From Spirulina sp. (GTDB taxonomy: Bacteria > Cyanobacteriota > Cyanobacteriia > Phormidesmidales > Phormidesmidaceae): a stretch of 64,000 nucleotides of DNA. Numbering within the stretch: position 1 is the first letter of the stretch; the number at the start of each line of letters is the position of its first letter. Position numbers and translations under genes: made by a program. This document shows positions 1 to 14,066 of this stretch, piece after piece. The notes beneath the pieces are model-generated. The model made no database searches. It was not told where the DNA came from and saw only the letters and a list, made by a program, of their open reading frames with translations. Location: assembly GCA_044070495.1 (NCBI GenBank), contig JBIPSI010000028.1, forward strand, positions 1 to 64,000. The letters are read 5' to 3'.

Positions 1-186
1 TTGACCAAGTGCGGGATGCCATTCGGCTAAAGCACTATTCTTCCTGCACAGAGCAAACCTACGTGCAATGGATCCGTCGGTACATCCTGTTCCGCAACAA
101 GCGCCACCCGAATCAAATGGGGGTGCCGGAGATAGAGGCGTCTTTAAACCCGTCTGGCGGTGCAGGAGCACGTAGCGGCCTCTACA
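1..186 (+). pseudogene. Integron-integrase (IntI-like tyrosine recombinase) N-terminal fragment, frameshifted and truncated; begins before the window
   Basis: Reads DQVRDAIRLKHYSSCTEQTYVQWIRRYILFRNKRHPNQMGVPEIEA. After an extra A near 148 it continues LAVQEHVAAST, matching the IntI N-terminal SAM-like domain, and then similarity stops. Confidence 0.8.
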
Positions 187-194
187 CTTCAGAG

Positions 195-438
195 CTAGTC
201 GGCCAACTGTTGGGCCAGGGCTTGGTGACGGTGTAGAAGATCGGTGCCATCCAGGGTTAGCAGGCCGTCGGGGCTGAGGACGGTTTTGCCGTGGATGACG
301 CTGTAGTCTACCCGGTCGATGGGGCAGAAAATGAGGGCGGCAACGGGGGGCATAGGCGCTGCCGGAGAGGGTGGGGCGATCTAGGTTAACGGCGACAAAA
401 TCAGCGGCCATGCCGGGGGCCAAGGCCCCAATATCACC
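195..438 (-). pseudogene. C-terminal remnant of an amidohydrolase (8-oxoguanine deaminase/AtzB-like), frameshifted
   Basis: Minus strand reads GDIGALAPGMAADFVAVNLDRPTLSGSAY, then a +1 shift in the G run near 345-350, then PVAALIFCPIDRVDYSVIHGKTVLSPDGLLTLDGTDLLHRHQALAQQLAD*. No 5' part is present. Confidence 0.7.
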
Positions 439-684
439 ACCCACCGCTCTGGGTTTCAGCGGGTTCCGTATCGTCGCAGAAGGTGCGGAGGCCAATTTTG
501 AGAATCCACAGCACCACCACCGTCGCAATCGCCGGACTCATCCAGGGCAGCGCAATTAGTTCTATCACGTAGACAATTAGCCCCGCCCGCCTCACGACAT
601 GCTGAGAGGCTGCCCCGGCTCCCAAGATCGACCGCTCCAGGGCGAGGCCGGACAACGGCACCTCAACCTTGAGAATTAGCTCAA

Positions 685-815
685 GAGGGCGTTTGAAAAG
701 GGTTGTCTCCGGTGCGATTGGCCCCTAGAGCGATGTAAATCTACCGGATTTTTGACGACCGAGGCTGACCTCATCGGGAGAACTTGGGACAGGCTTCGGC
801 TTTTCAAACGTCCTC
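685..815. mobile_element. 131-bp MITE-like element
   Basis: Terminal inverted repeats GAGGGCGTTTGAAAAG (685-700) and CTTTTCAAACGTCCTC (800-815) match at 15/16; no coding capacity. Confidence 0.65.
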
Positions 816-949
816 ATAACTCCGTGATGCGGAACTATCGGCGGAATTATCGTTTTAGCTAAGCCTGGCTCGGTTAGGCTAGAGGAGAGGCCGTTATCCT
901 AACGCTAAGGTGGCCTGGGTGAATTCTTCTCGACGCTAAGGATGCCAGT

Positions 950-2347
950 ATGCCAGCAGCCTACGATTGCATTGTGGTTGGAGCCGGATTATCTGGGCTA
1001 GTTGCGGCCCGCAATCTCCAGCGTGGGGGGCACAGCGTCTTGGTGATTGAAGCGCAGGCCAGCCTGGGCGGTCGCATGGTGGGTAAGCGATTGCCCTCAG
1101 GACAGTGGATTGATTTGGGTGGGCAATGGGTTGGCCCCACCCAGGATCGGTTTCTGGCCTTGCTAGACGAGTATGGTATCCGTCGATTTCCCTTTCACAC
1201 GGAGGGCAAGAAAGTCCTGGTGTTTGACGGGAAGCGCTATGAGTTTGACGGCTTCTTTGAGGGCTTTCCCGAAGGGGAACCTCCCCAGGTTAGCCCGGCG
1301 GAATGGCAGGATGCCATGGCCGCCTGGGATCGGTTTGAAGCGCTGGCTAAAACCTTAGCCCCCGGCCATCCCCGCCGCAATGATCACACCCTAGCCCTAG
1401 ACCGTCAGACCTTTGCCCAATGGATTGACGCCAATACCACTACGGCCTTTGGGAACTGGTACTTTGCCTACATGGTGCGGACGGTGGGCTTCCTTGGCCC
1501 CGCCGAACCCAGCCAGGTCTCGCTGCTCCATGTGCTGTGGGGACACACCTGCGCCTCCCAAGCCGAGTATCCAGAGGCCGAGTTGATCCACGGGGGGGCG
1601 GGCCAGATCCCCGTCAAGCTAGCGGCGGAGTTGGGTCAAAACCTGCGGCTGGGGGAACCCGTCCTGCGCATCCACCAATCTGAGACCGGGGTTGAGGTTG
1701 AAACCACCCAAGCACGCATTACCGGACAGTATGCCGTGGTGGCCATGCCGCCCCATCTGGCGGGCCGCATTGGTTACGATCCGCCGATGCCTGCCCGCCG
1801 CGCCCAACTCACCCAGCGAGTGCCGATGGGCTGCTGCGCCAAGGTGCTGGTCTCCTACGACCGTCCCTTTTGGCGAGATCGGGGGCTGGCGGGCCTAGGC
1901 ATCGGCAATGCCCCGTGGATTGAACTCTGTGCCGATAGCTCTGACCCCGAAACCGGGGTGGGGGTGATCGCGGCCTTCATCGTGGGGGATCGCTACGGCG
2001 TTTGGCAGGCCCTGGGGGAGGGATCGGATCCTGCGGAGCGGCGGCGTCAACGGCGGGAAGCGGTGCTGAGCGATTTAGCGGATTACTTTGGGCCAGCCGC
2101 CCTTTCCCCGGTCTCCTACGAGGAGGCGGACTGGCCCAGTAACCCCTGGATTGGGGGCGGCTATGCGGCCTTCATGCCCCCTGGGGTTTGGACCAGCTAT
2201 GGGGAAGCCCTCGCCGCCCCGGTGGGGCGCATTTACTGGGCGGGTACCGAAATGTCCGAGCGCTGGCCCGGTTTCTTTGATGGGGCCGTGCGCACCGGAG
2301 AAGCCGCCGCCGCCGCCATTCATACCCAACTCAGGGCACTTGAATAG
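950..2347 (+). CDS. Flavin monoamine oxidase family protein
   Basis: FAD-binding motif VVGAGLSGL, GGR and DLGGQW motifs, C-terminal WAGTE...GFFDGAVRTGE. Confidence 0.92.
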   Translation: MPAAYDCIVVGAGLSGLVAARNLQRGGHSVLVIEAQASLGGRMVGKRLPSGQWIDLGGQWVGPTQDRFLALLDEYGIRRFPFHTEGKKVLVFDGKRYEFDGFFEGFPEGEPPQVSPAEWQDAMAAWDRFEALAKTLAPGHPRRNDHTLALDRQTFAQWIDANTTTAFGNWYFAYMVRTVGFLGPAEPSQVSLLHVLWGHTCASQAEYPEAELIHGGAGQIPVKLAAELGQNLRLGEPVLRIHQSETGVEVETTQARITGQYAVVAMPPHLAGRIGYDPPMPARRAQLTQRVPMGCCAKVLVSYDRPFWRDRGLAGLGIGNAPWIELCADSSDPETGVGVIAAFIVGDRYGVWQALGEGSDPAERRRQRREAVLSDLADYFGPAALSPVSYEEADWPSNPWIGGGYAAFMPPGVWTSYGEALAAPVGRIYWAGTEMSERWPGFFDGAVRTGEAAAAAIHTQLRALE

Positions 2348-2353
2348 CCACCG

Positions 2354-2376
2354 CTAGGGGCGCGGTTTCCGCGTCC
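2354..2376. repeat. REP-like palindrome (GTAG family variant)
   Basis: CTAGGGGCGCGGTTTCCGCGTCC just after the stop codon; similar to copies at 24551, 53603 and 56349. Confidence 0.55.
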
Positions 2377-2653
2377 GGCACAGGATCTTTTGTCAGTCAA
2401 CCAGGGGCTATTGATACTATGACTTTGACAATTTTCGTGCCCACCTGTTAGCCTGCTCTCCTTACTATCTAGACTTATCACCAGAAAGTCAGAAGGGTTG
2501 GCTTCAAGATACCTGGCAAATCCATATTGACAATTGCTGTGCCCATGCAGGTCGGGGAGAGTAGGAGAAGAACTGCTAAGATTTAGCTGACAGTCTGGCA
2601 GATAAGGTTTTAGCAAATTCCCTGCCCTGCCAGAGATTGGGCTAATTAAGCTG

Positions 2654-3118
2654 ATGCCTAGAAAAGAACAAGGTTGGATCACGTTTCAAGCTTCCCCAGA
2701 AGAGCGAGACATGCTTGAAACCTATTGCCAGCAGACCCAGCGCTCGAAGACAGAGGTGTTGCGTGAGCTCATTAGGTGCCTAGAGGTATCGAAGCCACTG
2801 CCATCGTCTAAGCCCTCCGCAACGGTTCCTGAAGCAGCGGTAAATGGAGACGGGGCAGGGGTAGCAGTGCCGTTTCAAGTTAGTGCTCGCAACCTTTTTA
2901 GGGGGAGTATCACTAAGCTTTTCAAAGACGGAGTGAATACCGAAGTCACTCTAGAGATTGCTCCACACGTAGAAATCACCTCAGTCATCACGACCTCCTC
3001 AGCCCAGCGGCTTGGGCTAAAGGTTGGTAAGGTTGTCTTTGCCATGATTAAGTCGAGCAATGTAATGATCGCCGTCAGCGATTCTCTAGAGTTCTTTGCA
3101 GAAGGCCCTTTGGCTTGA
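2654..3118 (+). CDS. Ribbon-helix-helix + TOBE/Mop domain molybdate-responsive regulator (cyanobacterial ModE-like)
   Basis: N-terminal WITFQASPEERDMLE...SKTEVLRELIR (CopG/RHH-like); C-terminal Mop domain SARN...EITSVIT...LGL...AMIKSSNV. Confidence 0.85.
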   Translation: MPRKEQGWITFQASPEERDMLETYCQQTQRSKTEVLRELIRCLEVSKPLPSSKPSATVPEAAVNGDGAGVAVPFQVSARNLFRGSITKLFKDGVNTEVTLEIAPHVEITSVITTSSAQRLGLKVGKVVFAMIKSSNVMIAVSDSLEFFAEGPLA

Positions 3119-3432
3119 GTCTGGCCATGGATCAGGCCGCTGGAATCAGCTGATGTCATGGCTTCCAAGGGGCTACAGTGGTTATTACTCTAAGCTCAAT
3201 ACCGAGGAAGCATTGACTGCGATCCAGGTTGCCGTGTGCCAATTGTTACTTCGAAAATATCCTCTTAGCTACATTTAAATTCAATACTCATCCCCGTTGT
3301 TCAGAAAGCTAGGCCCCTGATCCTGAAGAAATTCGAAGTGCTTTCTGGGCAACAGACATGACCTATGAGTACATCCCTAATGACCTAAGTAGTCCTAACT
3401 TAAACAACTCAAATTGGGCGCTGTGCTATCTA

Positions 3433-3449
3433 TACCAATATAGTTGGTA
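3433..3449. promoter_or_regulatory. Candidate operator TACCAA-N5-TTGGTA
   Basis: TACCAATATAGTTGGTA upstream of the 3678 ORF; the same palindrome occurs at 6032 and (variant) 11352. Confidence 0.55.
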
Positions 3450-3488
3450 AGCAAAGGGATTTGGCGGTAAGACCCCTGGCCTTAACTG

Positions 3489-3622
3489 CCTGACACAAGT
3501 CCGAAAACCCTTGATATAGACTAGGTCGGGTGGCGCGATAGCAGAACCCAACAAGTCTCAACACCTCAGTGAGCGTCGGGTTTTGCTTCGCTGCACCCAA
3601 CCTATTTTAGAGATGTGTCAGG
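3489..3622. mobile_element. REP-doublet (REPIN-like) element inside 9-bp terminal inverted repeats
   Basis: Ends CCTGACACA and TGTGTCAGG. Internal TAGGTCGGGTGGCGCGATAGCAGAACCCAAC...CACCCAACCTA (3522-3604) has a related inverted copy at 55048-55124. Confidence 0.6.
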
Positions 3623-3677
3623 TAACCAATCCCTGGCCTTTCTATCGTTGATAAACTAACCTCTCTTCAACAAAGTC

Positions 3678-4538
3678 ATGGTCAATATGACTAGTCTTGC
3701 TGCACAAAAATGCCGTTCTGAGATTTTTGGTGACACTATAGAGCAGATTTTATTTCTTTTTGAAAGCTTGAAGTATACGACATTGTTGCAGTCGGATATC
3801 GTGTCGGGGCGGCATCAACCTATTTTGCAGAGCCATTATAACTATATCCTTGGGGATCGATTTTGTCAGGCGATGCAGCGGATTAATCCAAACATTTCTT
3901 TGGAACAAGTTGAGACCATTCTTCATCAGCTCAGATGGCCTCAGACTATGCCAGGATTAAAGCGTAATTACCAGTGGCACAGGCAATTATTGCACGGGAT
4001 TGCAGTTAAGCCTTCTTTAAAGAATCCCGAAAAACAAACTATTTTGCACCTTTTGGATTTCTCTGACGTAGCTAAAAATGATTGGCTAGTAATTTACTCC
4101 TTTCCTGTGATTGAAGCAGACTATCAGCATTGTCTTGACTTAGTTGTTTTTATCAACGGCTTACCTTTAGTCGTATTCCATGGTCTACATGGCCAGGGAG
4201 AATCTTGGTCTTTACGGGCGGCTTATTTACAGCTTCGAGAGTATCAAGCCCATCTTCCTAAATTTTTCTCATTTAATGAATTTTTGGTATTCTCGACTGG
4301 GGAAGATTACCAAATTGGAACACTAACATCTTCATGGAAGCAATTAGTTGCATTGAAATCCAGTCATAAAAAGAGAACTGCCTTGTCAGAAGAGACGCCA
4401 ACAGAATTATTCATAAAGAATGTCTTTAGTCAGCAAAACCTTCTTGAAATACTTCGACGTTCAATTACATTTACAGTCAGACGAACATTGCTAAATAAAA
4501 AAATAACGGATTACTCCTTTGGTCAATTTTATTTCTAA
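3678..4538 (+). CDS. Stand-alone type I restriction HsdR N-terminal (nuclease) domain, catalytic motif degenerate
   Basis: RINPNI, LLDFSDVAKNDWLV, DLVVFINGLPLVV, AAYLQLREY and FSFNEFLVFSTG match HsdR_N. The canonical IELK reads FHGL, and there is no helicase domain. Confidence 0.75.
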   Translation: MVNMTSLAAQKCRSEIFGDTIEQILFLFESLKYTTLLQSDIVSGRHQPILQSHYNYILGDRFCQAMQRINPNISLEQVETILHQLRWPQTMPGLKRNYQWHRQLLHGIAVKPSLKNPEKQTILHLLDFSDVAKNDWLVIYSFPVIEADYQHCLDLVVFINGLPLVVFHGLHGQGESWSLRAAYLQLREYQAHLPKFFSFNEFLVFSTGEDYQIGTLTSSWKQLVALKSSHKKRTALSEETPTELFIKNVFSQQNLLEILRRSITFTVRRTLLNKKITDYSFGQFYF

Positions 4539-4551
4539 AGCCTGAGAAATC

Positions 4552-5556
4552 ATGAAAGCGGGACTCTTCTGTACCTACGAAAATAATTATCAAGATTCTC
4601 ACCGAGCCATCGTTGAGCAGACCGCGTTAATTCAACATGCGGAAGCATTGCAATTCGAAGAAGCGTGGATTGCGGAACACCATTTTAATAGCTCTTATGT
4701 TAACCCTTCGATTCTGTTGCTGATGGCATATCTAGCAGGGATAACCTCTCGAATTCAGATAGGATCTGCTGCTATTCTTCTGGCATTTCATGACCCTGTT
4801 AAAATGGCAGAAGAAATTGCTACTCTAGATCATTTATGCAACGGAAGATTCCTGTTAGGGGTAGCTAAAGGTGGTCCTTTCCCTGACCAGAATAAACACT
4901 TTGGTGTTGCCATGGATGAAGCTCGTCCTCGCATGATAGAAGCCCTGAAACTGGTTGAGAAACTACTGTATAGTTCGAACGTTACTTTTTCCGGAAAGTA
5001 TTACCACTGTAATTCCTTAACTGTTCAACCCCAGCCATTACAGGATAAAATCCCAGTTTATATTGCGACGAGTGATCGAGATGCGATTGAATTAGCGGCA
5101 TTATATTCCTACGGTTTAATGGGAGGTGCTCCATTTTCGATTAGCCGTTTGAAGATGAACCAAGCTCAGTATCACGCGATTAACTCTAGTGGTTCTGACA
5201 AACTAGTCTTAACCCGTTTCTTCTTTGTTGCTCAGACTGACGAAGAAGCGATTCAAGAGTCTTTACCCTTCATTCAATCTTTCGCAGAACGGATGAAGAA
5301 GAATATTAGTCATATAAAAAATGATGGAAATACTCAACACCTAAAGCCTTCTTCTCAGCAAAAAACATGTTTTGATGAAGCTTATTTACTGGAAAATTCT
5401 ATCATTGGTAGCACAGCAACTTGTCGGGACAAGATTAAACGATTTCGAGATGATTTAAATATAGGTACACTGGCACTAAAGCCCTGCTCCTTCAATCTAC
5501 ATAAGAACATTAGAAGCTTAACCGAATACGCAGAGCACTTGCGTGATTTGTCATGA
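4552..5556 (+). CDS. LLM-class (luciferase-like) flavin-dependent oxidoreductase
   Basis: EAWIAEHHF, HDPVKMAEEIATLDHLCNGRFLLGV and PQPLQ motifs. Confidence 0.92.
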   Translation: MKAGLFCTYENNYQDSHRAIVEQTALIQHAEALQFEEAWIAEHHFNSSYVNPSILLLMAYLAGITSRIQIGSAAILLAFHDPVKMAEEIATLDHLCNGRFLLGVAKGGPFPDQNKHFGVAMDEARPRMIEALKLVEKLLYSSNVTFSGKYYHCNSLTVQPQPLQDKIPVYIATSDRDAIELAALYSYGLMGGAPFSISRLKMNQAQYHAINSSGSDKLVLTRFFFVAQTDEEAIQESLPFIQSFAERMKKNISHIKNDGNTQHLKPSSQQKTCFDEAYLLENSIIGSTATCRDKIKRFRDDLNIGTLALKPCSFNLHKNIRSLTEYAEHLRDLS

Positions 5557-6030
5557 TCTCTAAAAGGTCTCGCATAACTATATCTGTGAATCGAGCAAGC
5601 CTCTTATCTGTGGTTCAAAATATTCTAATACCATTCAAAATCTCCACCCATAATTGATTTTTTTCACAAACAGCCCAACGTTTTAGCATGCTTGTCAGCA
5701 GATATTCTTTTGAATATCGATAGCTCCTGCAATAATGGGTCTGCAACGATGTTCAAAAAGCAGGAATGGCTTCTAAAGATATAATTTTAATTTATTTTTA
5801 TACAAGATTATTGTGCAGAAAGCATCTAACACTAGCAGTTCAGTGCCCTAAAGGAAGAGTATTTTTATACTAGAGGGCAAGGAGATTGTCCTAACTCATC
5901 CTATATTTATCCTTTTACCTAAAAATGTTATAAATTCAGTGAATTTAATCACAGGCTTAGCATCTCTGACAGTAATCAACAGACTCAATGATTGCCTTAA
6001 ATCTTTTAAATTAGGAGGATAAAAGTCCGT

Positions 6031-6049
6031 ATACCAACATTATTGGTAT
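6031..6049. promoter_or_regulatory. Candidate operator ATACCAA-N5-TTGGTAT
   Basis: ATACCAACATTATTGGTAT, with perfect 7-bp arms, in an AT-rich intergenic region upstream of the 6341 ORF. Confidence 0.55.
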
Positions 6050-6340
6050 CAAGTTTAGCATTTTTTTGAGTTTGAGTCTGTCATTATACTAATAGGAAGA
6101 AAAAGGTGGCATTAGCCTTTAAACTCTCTTCCTAGATCTGGCTCTCTTGGATGGGATTTAATATGGTTGGCAGTGTCGGGACAGTCTTGGTTACTCATTA
6201 AATTTTCATTCCTCCTCTTTTGGAAGGTCAATTAACAGCATTTTAGCTTGCTTGTGATTGCTTGTTGTATGACGTTCTTTCTGCTAAGAGGTTTGCTAAT
6301 GGGGAAGCATAGCTGTAGTCACTGCCAACTTTTTTAATAG

Positions 6341-6883
6341 ATGCTTTGGCATAGGATCGTCTTAGCTATCAATTTAATGTTTTGCAACCCTCTACCCGAT
6401 TTTGGGATTATGGAAATACCTGAGCTCTGCTACGTTTCAGAAGCAAATATAGTGTTTTCAATCAGTGGAAATATCCGTAGGCCGAGGGAATTCTCTGCAA
6501 CTGATCTAGCTCAATTGTCTAGAACGAAATTGACCGTTGATGATAAGAAATGTGGTTCGATAACCTATGAAGGTGTATGGTTGAGAACTATTTTTGAGCA
6601 AGCTGAAGTACCTCAGGGAAAGAAGTTGAAAGGAGAGAAGCTGGCTTTTTTTCTCCTAATTGAAGCCCTTGATGGACACCAGATTGTCTACGCTCTGGCA
6701 GAATTTGATTCCGACTTTGGCAATCGCAATCCATTGCTGGCAGATTATCGCGACGGTCAACCTTTGAGGGAAGATGAAGCTCCCCTAAGACTGATAATTC
6801 CAGGAGAACGACGGCACTCTCGATGGATTCGAAAGATTGCTCACATGAAAGTCCTCAGTGGATTGCCTGACCAAAGTAGGTAA
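6341..6883 (+). CDS. Small molybdopterin-dependent oxidoreductase-like (Oxidored_molyb fold) protein; start uncertain
   Basis: YEGVWLRTIF, EALDGHQIVYALAE, LLADYRDGQPL...PLRLIIPGE...RWIRKI. Confidence 0.75.
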   Translation: MLWHRIVLAINLMFCNPLPDFGIMEIPELCYVSEANIVFSISGNIRRPREFSATDLAQLSRTKLTVDDKKCGSITYEGVWLRTIFEQAEVPQGKKLKGEKLAFFLLIEALDGHQIVYALAEFDSDFGNRNPLLADYRDGQPLREDEAPLRLIIPGERRHSRWIRKIAHMKVLSGLPDQSR

Positions 6884-7177
6884 GTGACTTCTAGCCTGAA
6901 TATGAGATCATATTGTTTAGTCAAGTCCTCTAAAGGATGGCTTACTCATAATCGAGATGCAAGAACTTGTCGAGCGAACGAATCTTAATAAAACCAATTT
7001 CTGGAGCAGGAAAACAATGGATGATAACGCTGTATAATAATCAGGTCAATGTTCAGTCCATGACAAGCAAAACTAAAGCAGGTAGTAGACCTCCCATGAA
7101 TGTTCCTATTTCAATTTGTCAACACCTGTCTTTATCACTTTGAGCCTGTCGCAAAAGTTGTATTTGAGGAGAGTATC

Positions 7178-7387
7178 ATGAAGCTGAGTGCTCGCAACCT
7201 ATTGAAGGGAACTGTAAAGTCTGTCATTACCGGAGTTGTTAACGATGAAGTGGTTTTAGAAATAGCTCCCGGCGTGGAAATTACAGCGGTAATTACTAAA
7301 AACTCATCGGAAAGCCTAGGTCTGTCGGTCGGTAAAGAAGCCTATGCTATCGTCAAGGCCTCGAACGTGATGGTTGCGGTTGACTAA
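7178..7387 (+). CDS. mop: Molbindin / molybdenum-pterin-binding protein Mop
   Basis: 69-aa single Mop domain MKLSARNLLKG...ITAVIT...LGL...AIVKASNV, with GAGGAG RBS before ATG 7178. Confidence 0.9.
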   Translation: MKLSARNLLKGTVKSVITGVVNDEVVLEIAPGVEITAVITKNSSESLGLSVGKEAYAIVKASNVMVAVD

Positions 7388-7455
7388 TCACAGTGCTTTT
7401 CGCGTTCGTAAGATGCAATTTTTCTAAGCTCAACTTCCCCAAAATTTAGTTCATT

Positions 7456-7505
7456 AATATCCCCCTTCTCCTCCCTTATTAAGAAGGTTGCAGGGGGATA
7501 TTTTT
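7456..7505 (+). terminator. Probable intrinsic terminator
   Basis: AATATCCCCCT...AGGGGGATATT stem followed by a T run downstream of mop. Confidence 0.55.
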
Positions 7506-7688
7506 ATGTAGTATTTTAACGATCAAACTCACTTTGTCTGGGTGTGACTATGCTGTCACAAGATATCAGTTTGACCTATCATTGCGAACATGGAAGATCC
7601 GACCTATGTAGGCCAGAAGAACCCTGTATTCTGGTCAGAAAATGCTTTCTCATTCCCTGATTTTTACAGGATCTTTTGAGTGAAAAGT

Positions 7689-8528
7689 TTATACCGTCGG
7701 TAAACGGCTTGGGTCTTGTTTCCACACGACAATGATGGTGCCATTGCCATTGGCAGTAGGCACTAAATTTAAATACCAGGTGGTTTCTCCCTGGGTAACT
7801 TCATAGACGCTTCCTCCTCCATAGTTGTTTTTTTGAATGGTTTGGAAACTGCTGTTTTGTAGCTGAGAATTAAGCACCGAAAGATATATTTGTTCAGGGG
7901 TCCTGCCATCGATCCAAACGGCTTTGAGAATCTCTGAATTCAGAGTTGGTGGTGTTTCTAGCAGATCGAAGTACAGACTGGCGTCGGAAAATACTTCGGG
8001 AGAAGGTAGATTGGTGGGTAAGCCTGTGGTTACGGCCAGTTGATCAACAAAGGTTTGAGCTGTGTTTGCATTTCCCTCGGATTGAGAAATCGGCTGATCT
8101 CCCGTCAATATATCTGGATCAGAGGATGGTCTTAGGGCCGGTGCAGGCTCTGGAGTTAGGGTAGCGTTTCCCGTTGGTTCTGGTGAAGCCGTTGAAATGG
8201 TGTCCGGAGGTGGAACGGCATCCTGCAAAAGAGGGGGGCTGAGTTGAGCCGATCTATTCCCTGGTGGGGGACTAATGACCGTATCAACTGGCGATTCCAG
8301 CGGAGAACTTGCTGATGGTGGAAGGGCCAGTAAGTCAGCCAGTGTAACGGTTTGTATGGGCTTCTCCGGGGCTTGAAGCGAGTCGTCTAACTCAGCTTTG
8401 GATGGTTCGGAGATGGGAATGAGTAGCAGCGCCCCGTGTAAGGCGAGGGCAACCCAGACCATCGGTTGGTAGAAGGCCGATAGCAGGAACCGTAAAACCT
8501 GGAGTTTTAGGCTGGGACGATTCGTCAT
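7689..8528 (-). CDS. Hypothetical membrane-anchored, proline-rich protein in the modABC operon
   Basis: ATG at 8528 lies 2 nt after the modBC stop. TM segment MVWVALALHGALLLIP, then a Pro/Ser/Thr-rich linker and a globular C-terminus. Confidence 0.7.
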   Translation of the reverse strand: MTNRPSLKLQVLRFLLSAFYQPMVWVALALHGALLLIPISEPSKAELDDSLQAPEKPIQTVTLADLLALPPSASSPLESPVDTVISPPPGNRSAQLSPPLLQDAVPPPDTISTASPEPTGNATLTPEPAPALRPSSDPDILTGDQPISQSEGNANTAQTFVDQLAVTTGLPTNLPSPEVFSDASLYFDLLETPPTLNSEILKAVWIDGRTPEQIYLSVLNSQLQNSSFQTIQKNNYGGGSVYEVTQGETTWYLNLVPTANGNGTIIVVWKQDPSRLPTV

Positions 8529-8530
8529 GG

Positions 8531-10381
8531 TTATCCGACCATCAGCATGAGTCTCAGGGGATCCAATCGTACGTACCAGGGAAAGGGGCATTCTTTCATC
8601 GTTTCCCACTTCTCCTTAAAGATTTCGGCCTGCAGATGGTAATCTTGCCACCCTTTAGGCTCAGCGTTCAGTTTTAAAAACAGCGTCATCCGGTGGGGGG
8701 TTTCACTGGTCGAGGCTAACCAACAGGGAAAGGTGTTGATCTGCTGAGGGTTGGGCTTGGGCAAAAGGCTGATTTGATGGGCTCGAATGCCAATGTCGGA
8801 AAGCTCCTCAGGAATGGCTTCGGCTACCTCTAAGGTGATTCCCCAATCGCTGGCTTCCACCGTATTTTTGCTCAGGGCTACGGCCTGAGAGAAGTTTTTG
8901 CAGCCGGTTAGTTGAGCCACGCGAATGATTTTGGGAGACTCAAAAATCTGATGCTTAGCGTCAAAGGCGATGGGCCTACCCGCTGACATAACCATCAGGT
9001 TTTCGCACACTCGATAGGCTTCTTCCAGGTTATGGGTGACAAATAAAGTGACGCCGGGATAGGCTGCTAGGGTTTCAACCAGTTGGCGTTCCATCTGGCT
9101 ACGCAGGTGGGTATCTAGGGCTGAAAAGGGCTCATCTAGCAAAAGGGTTTCGGGTTCGGTGGCCAAGGCACGGGCTAGGGCTACCCGCTGCTGCTGCCCC
9201 CCAGAAAGCTGATGGGGATAGCGATCACCCATTTCCTGGAGTTTGACTAGGGCAAGTTGCTGCTTAGTGCGCTGTGATCGCAACTCCTTCGGCCACTTCT
9301 GCAAGCCAAAGGCAATATTCTGGGCCACCGTCATGTGGGGAAATAGAGCGTAGTTTTGAAATACCAGACTGACTTTGCGCTGATGGCTGGGCAGATTGAT
9401 CCCTTTCTGGGCATCGAATAGGGTTTGGCCATTCAGCACAATTCTTCCGTGAGTAGGCGTTTCTACCCCGGCAATGCAGCGCAGGGTCATACTCTTGCCT
9501 GACCCCGACCCACCCAAAATGCCCAGGGTTTCGCCTTTGGTGGCAAAGGTCGTGGCTAGGGTGAAACTGGCCAACTCCTTTTCAATATCCACGAATAACC
9601 CGTCCTGGTGGTCGGAAAATTGTGCCCCGCTCCACGGCAGCCCCTTGGCTGGCTCTGACCCTTGCCCTCCCCGTGCCACCGGCTCCTCCGACTCAACCAG
9701 TCCTGGCTTCGCCCTGACTTGCCGTTCGTAGTGCTTTTGCCAAAGGTTAACAGAAACAATCCCCGACAGGGAGATCGTCATAATCACCATGACCCACAGC
9801 CAGGCTTCTTGCATCGCCCCGGCTTCGACCGCAAAGTAAATAGCCATGGGAATCGTTTGAGTCTGGCCCGGAATGTTTCCTGCCAGCATCAGGGTGGCAC
9901 CGAACTCCCCCAGGGCGCGGGCAAAGGCCAGGATGGTTCCCGCCAAAATTCCTGGGATGGAAAGCGGCAAGAGCACCCGCCAGAAGATGCGCCACTTGGG
10001 TGCGCCAAGGGTTTGAGCCACTTGCAGCAGATTGCTATCCACCTGCTCAAAGGCCCCTAATGCCGTTTTATACATCAAGGGAAAGGACACGACGGTCGCT
10101 GCAATGACGGCGGCATACCAAGTGAAGATAACAGTGAAATCAAAATGGGCCATGAACTGCCCCAGTGGCCCATGTTTGCCAAACACCATGAGCAACAAAA
10201 AGCCCACTACCGTTGGCGGTAAAATCAACGGCGAAACAAACAGGCCCTCAATGGCAGATTTCCAACGCCCCCGATAACCCAACATCCAATAGGCCGCTGC
10301 AATGCCTGTAAAGAATGTCACAAGGGTGGCCAGTCCTGCTGTTTTGAGTGAAATCCACAGCGGGGAAAAATCGGCGGTCAT
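8531..10381 (-). CDS. modBC: Fused molybdate ABC permease + ATPase ModBC
   Basis: Permease motifs PLILPPTVVGF and FARALGEFGAT; ATPase motifs GGSGSGKS, LSGGQQQR, LLLDEPFSALD. Confidence 0.93.
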   Translation of the reverse strand: MTADFSPLWISLKTAGLATLVTFFTGIAAAYWMLGYRGRWKSAIEGLFVSPLILPPTVVGFLLLMVFGKHGPLGQFMAHFDFTVIFTWYAAVIAATVVSFPLMYKTALGAFEQVDSNLLQVAQTLGAPKWRIFWRVLLPLSIPGILAGTILAFARALGEFGATLMLAGNIPGQTQTIPMAIYFAVEAGAMQEAWLWVMVIMTISLSGIVSVNLWQKHYERQVRAKPGLVESEEPVARGGQGSEPAKGLPWSGAQFSDHQDGLFVDIEKELASFTLATTFATKGETLGILGGSGSGKSMTLRCIAGVETPTHGRIVLNGQTLFDAQKGINLPSHQRKVSLVFQNYALFPHMTVAQNIAFGLQKWPKELRSQRTKQQLALVKLQEMGDRYPHQLSGGQQQRVALARALATEPETLLLDEPFSALDTHLRSQMERQLVETLAAYPGVTLFVTHNLEEAYRVCENLMVMSAGRPIAFDAKHQIFESPKIIRVAQLTGCKNFSQAVALSKNTVEASDWGITLEVAEAIPEELSDIGIRAHQISLLPKPNPQQINTFPCWLASTSETPHRMTLFLKLNAEPKGWQDYHLQAEIFKEKWETMKECPFPWYVRLDPLRLMLMVG

Positions 10382-10443
10382 GGGGGTGAGGTCAGAAAAA
10401 CGTGTGAGCAGAGAACACGGTTGGTTGCCATCCGCATCAACGG

Positions 10444-11241
10444 CTATGGGGCGATGCCAAAGCCGTACTTTCTAAAGATGGTCTGGGCTTGGGAACTCCT
10501 GAGAAATTGGGCATAGGTACGGGTAGCGGGTTGATTGCGACTGGCTGAGATCACGGCCATGGGATAAACAATGGGTGAATGCATATGCTCAGGGGCTGTG
10601 GCAACCTGGGTTACCTGGTCTGAGATTTTGGCATCGGTTCTGTAGACAATTCCAGCATCGGCATTGCCACTCTCAACCGTGCCTAAAACATTGCGCACCG
10701 AGTTGCCAAACACAAACTTGGGCTGCAATTGGTCCCAGAGGCCAAGGTATCTAAATAACTCCTCGGCATACTGTCCAGCGGGTACACTGCGGGGCTCCCC
10801 CATGGAAATTTTTTGAACTCTGGGATCGGTCAACTGCCGGAAGCCCGTTAGGCCCAGGGTGGAGTTACGGGGTACTACCAGCACCAGACGATTGGTCAAT
10901 AGGTTGCGTCGAGTATTGGCGACGATCAAGTTTTTCTCCTGTAGAGCATCCATCTGGCGGGCGGCGGCAGAAATGAACAGGTCTACGGGTGCCCCTTGTT
11001 CAATTTGCTGTTGTAGGGGGCCAGAGGCGGCAAAGTTGTAATTGACGGTGATGCCCCGGTTGGCCGCTTCAAACAATGGGTCAATTTCTTCCAAAGCATT
11101 TTGTAAACTGGCGGCGGCGGCGACCAGCAGGGTGGCCGATTGAGCGTTGGCTGGAGCTGGCATAACCACCCTGAAACCCACGGTCAAGAGCAGCGTGGCC
11201 ATTAATCCACCGAGAAAAGCAAGCAGGCGTCTTCGTTTCAT
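10444..11241 (-). CDS. modA: Molybdate ABC transporter substrate-binding protein
   Basis: Signal peptide MKRRRLL; AAAASL, NFAASG, SVPAGQYA and ADAGIVY motifs. Confidence 0.95.
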   Translation of the reverse strand: MKRRRLLAFLGGLMATLLLTVGFRVVMPAPANAQSATLLVAAAASLQNALEEIDPLFEAANRGITVNYNFAASGPLQQQIEQGAPVDLFISAAARQMDALQEKNLIVANTRRNLLTNRLVLVVPRNSTLGLTGFRQLTDPRVQKISMGEPRSVPAGQYAEELFRYLGLWDQLQPKFVFGNSVRNVLGTVESGNADAGIVYRTDAKISDQVTQVATAPEHMHSPIVYPMAVISASRNQPATRTYAQFLRSSQAQTIFRKYGFGIAP

Positions 11242-11340
11242 AGGGTTCAAGTTTTAAAGACAAGTGAGTTGGGCATGGTGAAGTGCAATGGAATTTAGTT
11301 CAGTGATTTACCCCTGAACGATATAACCATGGCGGCATTT

Positions 11341-11368
11341 TACCAACCTTTAGCCAACTTTTTTGGTA
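11341..11368. promoter_or_regulatory. Candidate operator(s) in the divergent modA/regulator promoter
   Basis: TACCAA half-site at 11341 plus AGCCAA-CTTTT-TTGGTA at 11352-11368. Confidence 0.45.
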
Positions 11369-11410
11369 TAAGCCTCTACACTGACTGCAATAGGTTGTTC
11401 GGGTAACGCT

Positions 11411-12583
11411 GTGAAAGATGAGCTACGCAATGGCTTAAGAGAAACCCGCCTGCACCTGGGGTTGAGTCAGCAGGAGCTAGCAACCCTGGTGGGGGTTAGT
11501 CGCCAAACCATCGGTGGAGTTGAGTCGGGGCAAACGGCCCTATCGATTACCCTTGCCCTGCGGCTGGCGAAGGCACTGGGCTGCCGGGTTGAAGACCTAT
11601 TCTGGCTCGATCACAAGATCACCGTTGTGGAGGCAACGCCGATTGCTTCGATGACCGTGGGAGAGCCTCAACGGGTTAGCCTGTCCAGTGTTGGAGGACG
11701 GTGGATCGCCCATCCGCTGGTGGGTGCCGATGCCTTTCGCCTGGAGATGATACCCGCCGATGGCGAAGCTACCCGACAGCCACACCAAGACACCCTCACC
11801 GTGACGCTGTTCAATGACTTGGGCAATCTCCTGAAAACGGTCGTGGTGGCTGGAGGTGCTCCAGCCCTTTCGCTCTGGGCCCGCGCCGCCGAACGTTGGT
11901 ATCCAGACCTAAGGATGCATCTCACCTTCGCCAACAGCACGACTGCCCTGGAGCAATTGCTACGCGGAGAAGTACACCTTGCCGGGATGCATTTGTTCTG
12001 CCCCCAAACCCAGACATTCAACGTGCCCTTTGTGCGACAGGCGCTACAGGACGAAACGGCAGTGCTGATTAATTTGGGGGTCTGGGAAGAAGGACTGCTG
12101 GTAGCCCCCGGTAATCCTAAGGGCATTCATACTGTTGCGGATTTGGCTCGCCTGGATGTTACCCTGATCAACCGCGAACCAGGGGCAGGTAGCCGCAAAC
12201 TGCTGGAGCAGGCTTTGATCGAGGCCGATATTTCCCTGCCATCAGTCATGGGAGACCATGACCCTGATGAATCTGTTTTTTCCCATCGACTCGCTTTCTC
12301 CCACCAGGCCGTGGCCGCAGCCATTGTTACTGGAGAGGCCGATGTTGGGGTCAGTGTGGCCTCCATGGCGACCCTCTTTAACTTGGGGTTTGTGCCCCTG
12401 CGGCAAACTCACTATGACCTAGTTACCCTTAAGCCCTATTTAGATGAAGTGCCAGTGCAGCAGGCGCTAAACGCGCTAAGCCATCGCTGGGTACTTTCTC
12501 AGCTTGAGGTTTTAGGAGGCTACGACACCCGCTTGACCGGGGAAGTAGTGGCAACGGTTCAAGCCCCGCCCAGAGGCGGTTAA
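11411..12583 (+). CDS. XRE-HTH transcriptional regulator with C-terminal molybdate-binding PBP-like domain
   Basis: HTH LSQQELATLVGVSRQTIGGVESG...LAKALGCRVEDLF; PBP_like motifs NSTTAL...GEVHLAGMHL and NREPGAGSR. Confidence 0.88.
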   Translation: MKDELRNGLRETRLHLGLSQQELATLVGVSRQTIGGVESGQTALSITLALRLAKALGCRVEDLFWLDHKITVVEATPIASMTVGEPQRVSLSSVGGRWIAHPLVGADAFRLEMIPADGEATRQPHQDTLTVTLFNDLGNLLKTVVVAGGAPALSLWARAAERWYPDLRMHLTFANSTTALEQLLRGEVHLAGMHLFCPQTQTFNVPFVRQALQDETAVLINLGVWEEGLLVAPGNPKGIHTVADLARLDVTLINREPGAGSRKLLEQALIEADISLPSVMGDHDPDESVFSHRLAFSHQAVAAAIVTGEADVGVSVASMATLFNLGFVPLRQTHYDLVTLKPYLDEVPVQQALNALSHRWVLSQLEVLGGYDTRLTGEVVATVQAPPRGG

Positions 12584-12679
12584 CTGGGCTAGGGCGACCA
12601 GGGAAGACAATAAACATGGGCCTTAGGATAATCTCAAAGGCCTTGGGCTTCCGTCAGTACTCGTTGTTGATGACCCGCC

Positions 12680-13372
12680 CTAGGGCTCTGTAGGCTTCAT
12701 GAGGCCGAACATTGGCCCCAGCACCAGCCCAAACACAAAGCCGCCGGAATGGGCCCAGTAGGCGATGTGGGAGGAGTCTAATCCCGCCTGGTCGCCCAGG
12801 GAAGCTAGGCTGAAAAAGGCCTGCTGGGCAAACCAAAGGCCCAGAAAGAAAAGAGCCGAAATGCGAACGACGGGAAACACCACAATTAGCGGCAGCAGGG
12901 TAAGAATTTCGGCCTTGGGGAACCGCCGCACATAGGCTCCCATCACCCCGGCAATGGCCCCACTCGCGCCGATGGTGGGCACCATGGAGGCGGGGTCGAA
13001 GGCCCACTGGGTGAGCCCTGCTAGCAGCCCACAGAGTAAATAAAAGACGAGAAACCTAAGGTGGCCAAGCTGATCTTCGATGTTGTTGCCGAAGATCCAA
13101 AGGTAGAGCAGATTGCCGCCGATGTGGAAAAAACCACCATGGAGAAACTGCGAGGATAGCAGGGTAATCCACTCGTAGAGGGGATTTTCGATCTGTCCAC
13201 GCAGGCTGGCGCTGAGTTGGTCGGGCACCATGGCCCACTGGTCGAAGAACAGATTGAGCGCCTGGGGAGAAAGGCTGAGTTGCTGCAAAAATACGACCAG
13301 GTTTAGGGCAATGATTCCATAGACAACAATGGGGGCGCGGCGGGTGGGAATGTTGTCGCGGAGGGGAACCAC
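12680..13372 (-). CDS. Rhomboid family intramembrane serine protease (probable GTG start 13372; frame open to 13471)
   Basis: VPLRDNIP N-terminus, FLHGGFFHIGGNLLYL, IGASGAIAG, AYWAHSGG. Confidence 0.9.
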   Translation of the reverse strand: MVPLRDNIPTRRAPIVVYGIIALNLVVFLQQLSLSPQALNLFFDQWAMVPDQLSASLRGQIENPLYEWITLLSSQFLHGGFFHIGGNLLYLWIFGNNIEDQLGHLRFLVFYLLCGLLAGLTQWAFDPASMVPTIGASGAIAGVMGAYVRRFPKAEILTLLPLIVVFPVVRISALFFLGLWFAQQAFFSLASLGDQAGLDSSHIAYWAHSGGFVFGLVLGPMFGLMKPTEP

Positions 13373-13595
13373 GGGGACAGCAGAATAAACAGCCTCTCCA
13401 TTGTAGTCATCCCCACCGTCATCCCCGCCCCACCGAGATCGTGGGAGGTTCCTCAGCCTGTCATGGGTCAACCAGCCAGGGCTAGAACATCGGCGTTATG
13501 GTGGCGTTCTGTCTCGATTTGATGCGAAACGCGGCCTGAGGTTGGGGCGGGGGCGTTATCATCGGCATGTGATCGCCTAGATGGAAGGTTGTGTG

Positions 13596-14066
13596 ATGAC
13601 TGCCAATACCGTAGAACTCGATCTGTCGGCCCCTAACCTGGAAGACGCCATGGAAAGTACCTCCTACGTTGAGACTATTGAGGCGGTGCTGTCGAGCCTC
13701 GATCAGGGGGATGGGCCACGGGTGCAAAAAAATTCCGAGGGGCACCTCTGGACGTTTAAGTACGGCAGTGTCAATGTCTATGTGCAGCTAACGGGGGAAA
13801 CGGTCTCCGATACGCTGACCGTGTGGTCGCCGGTGCTGACCCTGCCCGCCAAGGACGAACCCCGGCTGATGAAGCACCTGCTAGAGAAGAATTGCTACGA
13901 AACCCTGGAGGCCCGCTTTGGCCTATCCGGCAATCAGGTACTCGTGATTTCTAGCCGCATTTTGCAGGATATTTCCGCCACCGAAATCTCTCGTTTGATG
14001 ACCATCGTGGCCACCATTGCCGATGATGCCGACGACGCACTACAGGCCGAATTTGGTCAAAACTAG
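13596..14066 (+). CDS. YbjN / T3SS-chaperone-like domain protein
   Basis: WTFKYGSVNVYVQLTG...LMKHLLEKN...IATIADD pattern typical of cyanobacterial YbjN proteins. Confidence 0.75.
   Translation: MTANTVELDLSAPNLEDAMESTSYVETIEAVLSSLDQGDGPRVQKNSEGHLWTFKYGSVNVYVQLTGETVSDTLTVWSPVLTLPAKDEPRLMKHLLEKNCYETLEARFGLSGNQVLVISSRILQDISATEISRLMTIVATIADDADDALQAEFGQN

Follow-up and report, generated by a model that had tools for sequence, protein, structure and literature searches.

HsdR of type I restriction-modification (R-M) systems (PF04313; EcoR124I HsdR, PDB 2W00) is the closest described relative of the protein considered here. Inactivated domains of the same PD-(D/E)xK nuclease fold have been reused as binding modules in repair or transcription complexes, as in ERCC1 and the RPB5 N-domain. 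NifQ, Mop, and other molybdenum (Mo) donors or stores serve FeMo-cofactor synthesis. ModE of Escherichia coli is a winged-helix protein with two Mop domains. When it carries molybdate, ModE represses modABC, and Anabaena variabilis has Mo-repressible modA and modBC with a 'modE homolog upstream of modA' (PMC4284476). We analyzed a 64,000-nucleotide stretch of Spirulina sp. DNA (the window; positions 1 to 64,000 of contig JBIPSI010000028.1, assembly GCA_044070495.1) that encodes a short protein corresponding to the HsdR N-terminal domain (HsdR-N-like) behind a palindrome that also stands before molybdate genes. Our overall explanation, to which we give a probability of about 0.6, is that the gene encodes an exapted, noncatalytic HsdR nuclease domain behind a molybdate box (Mo-box) in diazotrophic filamentous cyanobacteria. 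The gene is probably a functional non-nuclease member of the Mo-box regulon. The features that bear on this explanation are as follows.

3678..4538, + strand: HsdR-N-like gene, a stand-alone HsdR N-terminal (PD-(D/E)xK) domain without E-x-K, 286 amino acids (aa).
3433..3449, unstranded: Mo-box 1, exact palindrome TACCAATATAGTTGGTA, candidate operator of an operon of the HsdR-N-like gene and a luciferase-like monooxygenase (LLM).
6032..6048, unstranded: Mo-box 2, exact palindrome TACCAACATTATTGGTA, 293 nt before a molybdopterin-oxidoreductase-like open reading frame (ORF) and Mop.
11341..11368, unstranded: Mo-box 3, half-site TACCAAC plus degenerate palindrome AGCCAACTTTTTTGGTA (2 mismatches), between modA and an HTH-PBP gene.
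2654..3118, + strand: putative molybdate-sensing regulator with a 44-residue DNA-binding-like N terminus, a variable linker, and one TOBE/Mop domain.

The family to which the protein belongs resembles HsdR in fold, domain limits, PD aspartate, NGLPL strand, and the QxxxY and FNE motifs. It differs in lacking the SF2 motor, the C-terminal domains, E-x-K, and an hsdM/hsdS partner, in being basic rather than acidic, and in its apparent place in a molybdate-box regulon of diazotrophs. Residues 21 to 220 of the window protein match PF04313 HSDR_N over profile positions 7 to 196 of 198 (E 1.8e-24; 87.1 bits versus a cut-off of 25.1). The match to the hsdR model TIGR00348 is limited to positions 22 to 245 of 674 (88.6 bits versus a cut-off of 284.55), and the match to the PADLOC model REase_I to positions 32 to 268 of 1029. 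An alternative start at M4 (position 3687), a possible choice of gene callers, would give 283 aa. The protein ends in ...NKKITDYSFGQFYF (also ...KKITDYSFGQFYF), before the YHQ motif, where true HsdRs run on as KKxAGYHQFHAV into the helicase/motor; this C-terminal end is common to the family members, and the HsdR-N-like protein has no SF2 domains. The family profile found EcoR124I HsdR among solved structures (E 1.6e-8 to 1.1e-7). An AlphaFold model of the protein (mean pLDDT 68.5, pTM 0.74) superposes on the EcoR124I HsdR nuclease domain (Foldseek E 1.9e-9, TMq 0.53–0.60), and an Atlas structure search gave a TM score of 0.84 to HsdR N-domains. An earlier note on this DNA had read the 286-codon frame as an HsdR N-terminal domain that ends where the motor begins, and the profile limits bear this out.

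Two clades of similar short proteins were found. A word-indexed protein search returned 34 proteins, about 30 of them homologues of 258–343 aa with 46–60% identity (clade A; alignment A1). Their hosts are Planktothrix, Kamptonema, Aerosakkonema, Egbenema, and other filamentous cyanobacteria, and their database annotation is 'type I restriction endonuclease'. An exhaustive search of a representative library was made without a length filter, and proteins of every length were read. All eight matches at E <= 1e-30 were short (147–321 aa), so this library holds no close full-length or fused form; full-length HsdRs (~1000 aa) had identities of 32% or less. The sister clade B (31–36% identity) comprises three of the eight short matches, P0036–P0038 (239–313 aa, 33–36% identity), of which P0036 is from Cylindrospermum stagnale, and seven members of 296–333 aa. 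These seven were translated from loci found in one coded family (f7) of a sample of 401 cyanobacterial genomes, and clade B occurs in Nostocales-type genomes. With about 40 length-conserved relatives in two clades that lack E-x-K, the argument of the earlier note against simple decay holds.

The catalytic residues are lost throughout the family. In alignment A2, all nine true HsdR rows carry D...E-x-K, as in RRPDxVVFxNGLPLAVIELK. The window protein reads QHCLDLVVFINGLPLVVFHGL at this motif, with the PD aspartate retained as D154, E replaced by H168, and K by L170; a profile-structure alignment places these residues at D151, E165, and K167 of EcoR124I. Both E and K are missing from 30/30 clade A and 10/10 clade B sequences, and both are present in the nine HsdR rows, as had been claimed for the window protein from its letters. 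The former E position in clade A is H (20), Q (8), or G (2), and K occurs in 0/30. Clade B reads ...NGLPLAVIVSIQ... at the former active site, likewise without E or K. What is retained from HsdR includes the NGLPL strand, the FNE motif, and the QxxxY motif (Q in 28/30, Y in 26/30). C152 is found in 28/30 clade A sequences, and both clades commonly have a C-terminal FCT motif. Since conservation of the former active site is uneven across the clades, we cannot argue for a new catalytic or metal site. A His/Cys/Asp metal site newly formed in place of the old active center was considered and rejected, its positions not being conserved between clades. The median isoelectric point is 8.95 for clade A and 7.7 for clade B, compared to 5.3 for 20 HsdR N-domains. 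Clade B proteins have an N-terminal tail, MNPAQLKK...RKLRRRF, with a net charge of +6 to +9, and the clade A relatives have the basic tail MNRSPQNTANRTR....

The ratio of nonsynonymous to synonymous substitution (dN/dS) was computed for 11 orthologues by the Nei-Gojobori method (NG86). It is 0.16–0.22 for pairs with unsaturated dS (0.60–0.93) and 0.08–0.25 over every computable pair, not near 1 as a young pseudogene would have it. A quick maximum likelihood tree was built from 72 rows (30 clade A, 10 clade B, and 32 HsdR N-domains), leaving out L041–L043, which are further clade A loci, and the fragment L060. Clades A and B together split from the 32 HsdR N-domains with a Shimodaira-Hasegawa-like approximate likelihood ratio of 100; the support is 100 for clade A, which has a long stem (0.94), and 95 for clade B. 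One event of truncation and inactivation, after which the protein was long retained, would be compatible with this tree. Judged by its sequences, the HsdR-N-like family is selected for and is no relic.

The second line of evidence is the palindrome TACCAA-N5-TTGGTA. Two exact copies were observed in the window compared to 0.09 expected, and the 5.3-Mb genome holds only these two, at 3433 and 6032; a reversed-pattern control gave 0. The box stands upstream of the HsdR-N-like gene in 10/10 clade A loci (L001–L010) and is absent from 27 true-HsdR loci in the same scan. It is exact in 11 of the 12 other clade A loci (L001–L010 and L041), and its right half is lost in L042. The clade A site is an invariant 20-mer, TGATACCAATATAGTTGGTA, whose flanking sequence differs between loci. 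The distance from the 20-mer to the ATG is 31–45 nt in seven loci (L001–L004, L006, L007, L009), and the start lies further downstream in L005, L008, and L010. Six of the seven clade B loci have an exact box 134–256 nt upstream of the gene, and the seventh has one mismatch. The invariant clade A spacer TATAG(T) is probably a −10 hexamer (TATAGT) inside the operator. A promoter consensus scan gave 15 sites compared to 10.4 expected, with none at Mo-box 1.

The same box heads molybdate genes. In L001, L003, and L007, palindromes with other spacers and an extra upstream half-site lie between modA and a divergent small regulator, and Mo-box 3 of the window shares this half-site-plus-palindrome architecture. 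Boxes in the clade B stretches also precede the HTH-PBP gene (L123, L124) and modA-like genes (L124, L129). The HsdR-N-like gene, modA, and the putative molybdate-binding regulator have a conserved candidate operator in common. Because the box is common to modA and the Mop-domain regulator, we place the HsdR-N-like gene in the molybdate-box regulon, and its regulation by Mo is strongly indicated by this pattern of sites. The candidate operator of the earlier note is far stronger than first seen. An Rfam scan of positions 1–14000 at E <= 0.1 found no family, and therefore no molybdenum cofactor riboswitch accounts for the regulation.

The gene at 2654..3118 is a candidate for the box-binding factor. 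Its product matches TOBE (PF03459, E 5.4e-16) and Mop (TIGR00638, E 6.9e-21), and its N terminus, MPRKEQGWITFQ..EER..LE.....RTKTEILRE..R, is nearly invariant in 20 homologues (alignment A4), ending TKTEILRELVR in the window. The structure model has an unstructured N-terminal stretch, helices at 15–28 and 32–45, and then a TOBE barrel. We read the N terminus as ribbon-helix-helix-like (possibly strand-helix-helix) from the conserved pattern and the two modeled helices. Pfam searches with the N-terminal 73 residues gave no match for the window protein and noise only for the L007 homologue. The regulator search reached 56 genomes of the sample at E <= 1e-15, 12 of them with Mop-only or partial matches, so that full-length homologues occur in approximately 44/401; within coded family f7, 37/45 genomes have matches at this threshold, Mop-only matches included. 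In 19 of the 29 best loci outside the window's own genome, the 400 nt before the regulator start contain an exact ACCAA-N5-TTGGT. In non-carrier genomes, the box stands 21–41 nt before the regulator start in 15/20 loci, so the box accompanies the Mop-domain regulator even where the HsdR-N-like gene is missing. These 15 loci disfavor the HsdR-N-like protein itself as the factor that binds the box. The sites are most simply read as autoregulation of the regulator, with the HsdR-N-like gene among its targets; the regulator looks like the cyanobacterial molybdate repressor. It resembles ModE in pairing a Mop/TOBE regulator with a palindromic operator before modA and in the divergent modA/regulator arrangement of L001, L003, and L007. 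It differs in having one TOBE domain instead of two Mop domains, a short strand(?)-helix-helix N terminus without a Pfam match instead of a winged helix, and the box TACCAA-N5-TTGGTA. No description of the DNA-binding domain of this regulator, of its box, or of any ribbon-helix-helix/TOBE regulator was found in the literature searched.

The short HsdR-N-like gene is present in 11 of the 401 sampled genomes, four with clade A (the window's included) and seven with clade B. All 11 carriers have the full-length regulator, and nifH is above the cut-off in 11/11 carriers compared to 72/401 genomes overall; because the carrier genomes are kin, these counts are descriptive only. In the host genome of the window, nifH (458.6 bits) and a gene for a TIGR01616 'nitrogenase-associated' ArsC-family protein lie 13 kb apart on a contig other than the window's. 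This TIGR01616 family (E ~1e-50, above cut-off) is encoded in 7/12 other clade A loci, directly downstream of the HsdR-N-like gene in L001, L003, L005, L009, and L042 and behind the LLM in L002 and L007. Other direct downstream genes in clade A encode Mop (L004), ModA (L006), and the Mop-domain regulator (L008). In 7/12 other clade A loci, the flanking sequence retrieved includes Mo genes (Mop, ModA, ModBC, regulator). One of these 12, L006 (JBLNEP010000172.1), bears the label of an Actinomycetota metagenome-assembled genome. It nevertheless has the invariant 20-mer and modA as well as a family member with 55% identity, and it probably comes from a cyanobacterium and was misbinned.

The clade B gene order is HTH_3+PBP_like regulator, NifH (TIGR01287, 462 bits), NifE (559 bits), NifN (566 bits), box, and HsdR-N-like gene. 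The full nifH-nifE-nifN order is found in four genomes (G260, G180, G284, G234), and a fifth (G378) has NifE and NifN with no nifH ORF; NifE-NifN thus stand directly upstream of the HsdR-N-like gene in 5/7 clade B loci. The downstream gene encodes Mop (L044, L047), LLM (L046, L049), or ModA (L045). The HTH_3+PBP_like-nifH-nifE-nifN cluster is an extra set (L123–L127, from the same five genomes) with a box before it. These genomes are Nostocales-type, have two to four nifH copies, and lack VnfD in 3/5 cases. The extra set could be a cofactor-assembly set induced by Mo starvation. Placement of the clade B genes in vnf (V-nitrogenase) clusters was considered and dropped, as VnfD was found in 2/5 genomes tested and lies hundreds of kb away.

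This genomic company could also mean that the HsdR-N-like protein handles Mo directly. The former phosphate/metal pocket or the conserved cysteines would bind molybdate or a cluster precursor, and Mo would be passed to NifEN/NifH, making the protein an analogue of NifQ or of Mop partners. The nearby Mop, ModA, and TIGR01616 genes, NifE-NifN directly upstream in clade B, the nifH-bearing carriers, C152, and the shared FCT motif are what such a carrier would lead one to expect. However, shared regulation explains the neighborhood equally well, the Cys/His positions are not conserved from one clade to the other, and the FCT cysteine is missing from the window copy. The Pfam scan of the protein yields PF04313 alone, with no NifQ or Mop similarity. 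Thus, the family shares with NifQ and Mop its genomic company (Mop, ModA, NifH-NifEN, ArsC-like protein) and, in the sample, its restriction to nifH-bearing genomes, but no sequence or fold similarity. No protein in these loci is assigned to Mo delivery to NifEN/NifH, and no search aimed at nifQ was made. This direct Mo carrier is the main rival of our explanation, but we consider it unlikely.

The remaining features near the gene are listed below.

4552..5556, + strand: LLM, PF00296 (E 5e-60), 13 nt after the HsdR-N-like gene.
5855..5995, + strand: cupin gene remnant, 47 aa, 45% identical to the L003 cupin (tblastn E 1.3e-10).
6341..6883, + strand: Oxidored_molyb-like small protein, PF00174 (E 1.6e-7), with a homologue near the L008 orthologue.
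7100..7387, + strand: Mop (single TOBE), molybdate-binding, PF03459 (E 1.5e-16) and TIGR00638 (E 1.1e-22).
8531..10381, − strand: fused ModBC molybdate ABC (ATP-binding cassette) transporter, PF00528 and PF00005, 76–80% identical to ModBC of L001, L003, and L007.
10444..11250, − strand: ModA, periplasmic molybdate-binding protein, PF13531 (E 2.8e-63).
11411..12583, + strand: HTH_3 + PBP_like regulator, PF01381 and PF12727, the architecture that heads the clade B NifH-NifE-NifN clusters.

No ORF of 60 aa or more was found in 5557–6340. A 306-aa Pro/Ser-rich ORF at 7689–8609 (− strand) has no Pfam or NCBIfam family. It shares ~80 nt with the 3' end of modBC and may belong to the modA-modBC operon. 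An open-ended frame at 3–236, DQVRDAIRLKHYS..TEQTYVQWIRRYILF, is apparently truncated at the window start and resembles what we take to be the N-terminal part of a tyrosine-recombinase/integrase.

The LLM gene is probably cotranscribed with the HsdR-N-like gene, and its position 13 nt behind agrees with the earlier note, which had proposed a two-gene module, perhaps Mo-regulated. The LLM has no NCBIfam model at cut-off, and its PADLOC scan gave a generic oxidoreductase model only. The two proteins would then be dedicated partners, or subunits of one enzyme. The short gaps (13 nt in the window, 3 nt in L007) would suit this arrangement, and the window LLM is 59–73% identical to the LLMs beside clade A and clade B genes (alignment A3). 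These neighbor LLMs are orthologous in both clades, and so the pairing is old or recurrent. Genomes G206 and G284 each have two LLM copies, one behind the HsdR-N-like gene and the other at a separate place. Nevertheless, an LLM is directly downstream in just 5/19 other loci, namely 3/12 other clade A loci (L002, L007, L041; L010 has a 34-aa remnant) and 2/7 in clade B. The LLM orthologue occurs in 36/401 genomes compared to 11/401 for the HsdR-N-like gene, and most of these genomes have it without the HsdR-N-like gene and without the box. In 26/29 LLM loci (L094–L122), it is followed by a 114–124-aa protein, often with overlapping stop and start, that has no Pfam or NCBIfam family. The exact box is upstream of the LLM in 1/29 loci, where it belongs to the HsdR-N-like gene. 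The LLM and this protein form a conserved pair, with a SAM methyltransferase nearby in L120. Being far commoner than the HsdR-N-like gene, and mostly found with the 114-aa protein and without the box, the LLM is optional cargo. The Mo regulation suggested for the module is strongly indicated, and its LLM half finds no support in the form proposed; a dedicated LLM partnership is improbable. What stays constant is the box together with the HsdR-N-like gene, and the cargo downstream changes from locus to locus.

The descent of the domain from HsdR raises a role in restriction, as a decoy, regulator, or anti-restriction factor for type I R-M or as part of an anti-phage system. One Aerosakkonema locus has a complete type I system (ResIII/EcoEI-type R, S, zeta-toxin-like protein, and M; L003:959-7711) directly upstream of its HsdR-N-like gene. 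This adjacency is the sole case among 19 other loci and is probably coincidental. The host genome of the window (5.3 Mb, 97% complete) gave 0 matches to PF01420 (HsdS), and PF02384 (N6_Mtase) gave only weak matches of 36 and 29 bits in 918-aa and 1352-aa frames on other contigs. It holds no other PF04313 gene of HsdR size and no canonical type I system, which makes a decoy or modulator role unlikely here and extends to the genome the claim that no hsdM or hsdS is nearby. Two weak PF04313 matches elsewhere in the genome, C27:54532-54918 (29.8 bits) and C26:28284-28487 (24.1 bits), lie in frames of 245 and 216 aa and would be other small stand-alone nuclease-fold proteins. The PADLOC scan of the HsdR-N-like protein gave no defense model beyond the partial REase_I match, and both the box and the gene order link it with Mo and nitrogenase genes instead. 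HsdR contacts the methylase through its C-terminal part and not through the N-terminal nuclease domain. A restriction role is very improbable.

The window copy is atypical of its family, which weighs against our explanation. It has a repeat in its leader.

3486..3628, unstranded: dispersed repeat of ~143 bp, at least 40 copies at ~80% identity in its own genome, between Mo-box 1 and the ATG.

Insertion of this repeat accounts for the 228 nt between the end of the box and the ATG, compared to 31–45 nt in seven other clade A loci. Several copies stand at contig ends, and the repeat is probably a miniature mobile element. Neither the basic tail found at the N terminus of its relatives nor the C-terminal (S/P)FCT motif is present in the window protein, which has a long terminal branch (0.64 in the quick tree), and a decayed cupin gene lies downstream. 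Synonymous sites are saturated in all 10 pairs that involve the window, and therefore the dN/dS of its own branch is not estimable. Other points concern the family and the regulon. The former active site varies between clades (HC-x-D varies, and the D is lost in P0038), the basic charge merely suggests nucleic-acid binding, and the relatedness of the carriers makes the 11/11 counts overstate independence. Regulation by molybdate is inferred from comparative genomics and by analogy with E. coli ModE, the DNA-binding fold of the regulator has no Pfam match, and a different factor, for instance the HTH-PBP protein, could be the one that binds the box. A search for sequencing runs that contain the locus listed three DNA or unclassified runs (0.05 share) and no RNA run.

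The points peculiar to the window would fit a copy that is, by itself, the decaying relic of a functional family. The leader repeat, the missing tail and FCT motif, the cupin remnant, the loss of the ArsC-like and 114-aa genes from the locus, and the terminal branch all lean this way, as do changes at 13 of 91 highly conserved positions, some of them radical (G32K, G56Y, N133K, E241P). Against decay, the frame is intact across 286 codons in DNA of 38% GC, and at 78 of the 91 positions with conservation of 90% or more among the other members the protein retains the common residue, in the same range as other outliers at 84–87%. Comparable branches occur elsewhere in the tree (P0027, 0.65; P0029, 0.58), and the downstream LLM is intact and 72–73% identical to its orthologues; the saturated dS leaves the copy's own dN/dS out of this comparison. 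Decay of the window copy is quite unlikely. Positions 3300–7600 have a GC content of 40% compared to 57% for the rest, the lowest 4.3-kb window in the 64 kb, and contain the HsdR-N-like gene, the LLM, the cupin remnant, the Oxidored_molyb-like gene, and Mop. The low GC suggests horizontal acquisition of a box-controlled cassette, which may be a horizontally acquired, partly eroded version.

We return to an exapted nuclease domain in the molybdate-box regulon. A cyanobacterial ancestor of the gene would have lost the motor domains and E-x-K, and the remaining ~300-aa protein would have been kept by selection as the first gene behind a molybdate box. The same box heads modA, the small Mop-domain regulator, and, in Nostocales-type genomes, the extra regulator-nifH-nifE-nifN cluster. 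The molybdate-loaded regulator would bind the box and occlude the promoter, whose −10 hexamer would lie inside the clade A box, and would be released when Mo is scarce. The HsdR-N-like protein would then be made together with ModABC for uptake, Mop for storage, and variable cargo (LLM, the ArsC-like 'nitrogenase-associated' protein, cupin). On nucleic acid, it would modulate the expression of Mo-limitation or nitrogenase genes. Such an accessory role in the Mo-limitation/nitrogenase program, binding rather than cutting, is our tentative choice of function, because the family is basic and the ancestral ligand of the fold is DNA. A role in metal or cofactor trafficking at large, or as a protein scaffold, is possible but doubtful, and the rest of the probability goes to other functions. 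A more far-reaching version has the domain domesticated early in filamentous cyanobacteria into a Mo-starvation protein of nitrogen fixers, under a previously undescribed Mop-domain repressor and its box, to act as a nucleic-acid-binding co-regulator or as a Mo-delivery partner for NifEN/NifH; we think it rather unlikely in this complete form.

The literature searched, with subscription journals and bioRxiv supplements outside its scope, contains no description of the HsdR-N-like family or of a Mo link of HSDR_N proteins, in agreement with the earlier note, which knew of no such system. The likeness to ERCC1- and RPB5-type domains is that the nuclease fold is kept under selection after the catalytic residues are lost; no inactivated PD-(D/E)xK example tied to metal homeostasis or derived from HsdR was found. 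Reuse of an inactivated PD-(D/E)xK domain is of a known kind, and the regulon and the box themselves seem undescribed.

If our explanation is true, the family would be a clear case of a defense-enzyme domain reused in metal homeostasis, a link that we found nowhere in the literature searched. The label 'type I restriction endonuclease' on its members misleads censuses of defense systems. In many soils and waters, too little Mo holds back nitrogen fixation and nitrate use. How cyanobacteria sense Mo is only sketched, for A. variabilis (PMC4284476). The present loci would supply a concrete molybdate regulon. Its parts would be the 17-bp box, a candidate regulator with one TOBE domain, and, as members, the HsdR-N-like protein, modA, Mop, and the extra nifH-nifEN set; the box and regulon make Mo sensing in cyanobacteria directly testable.

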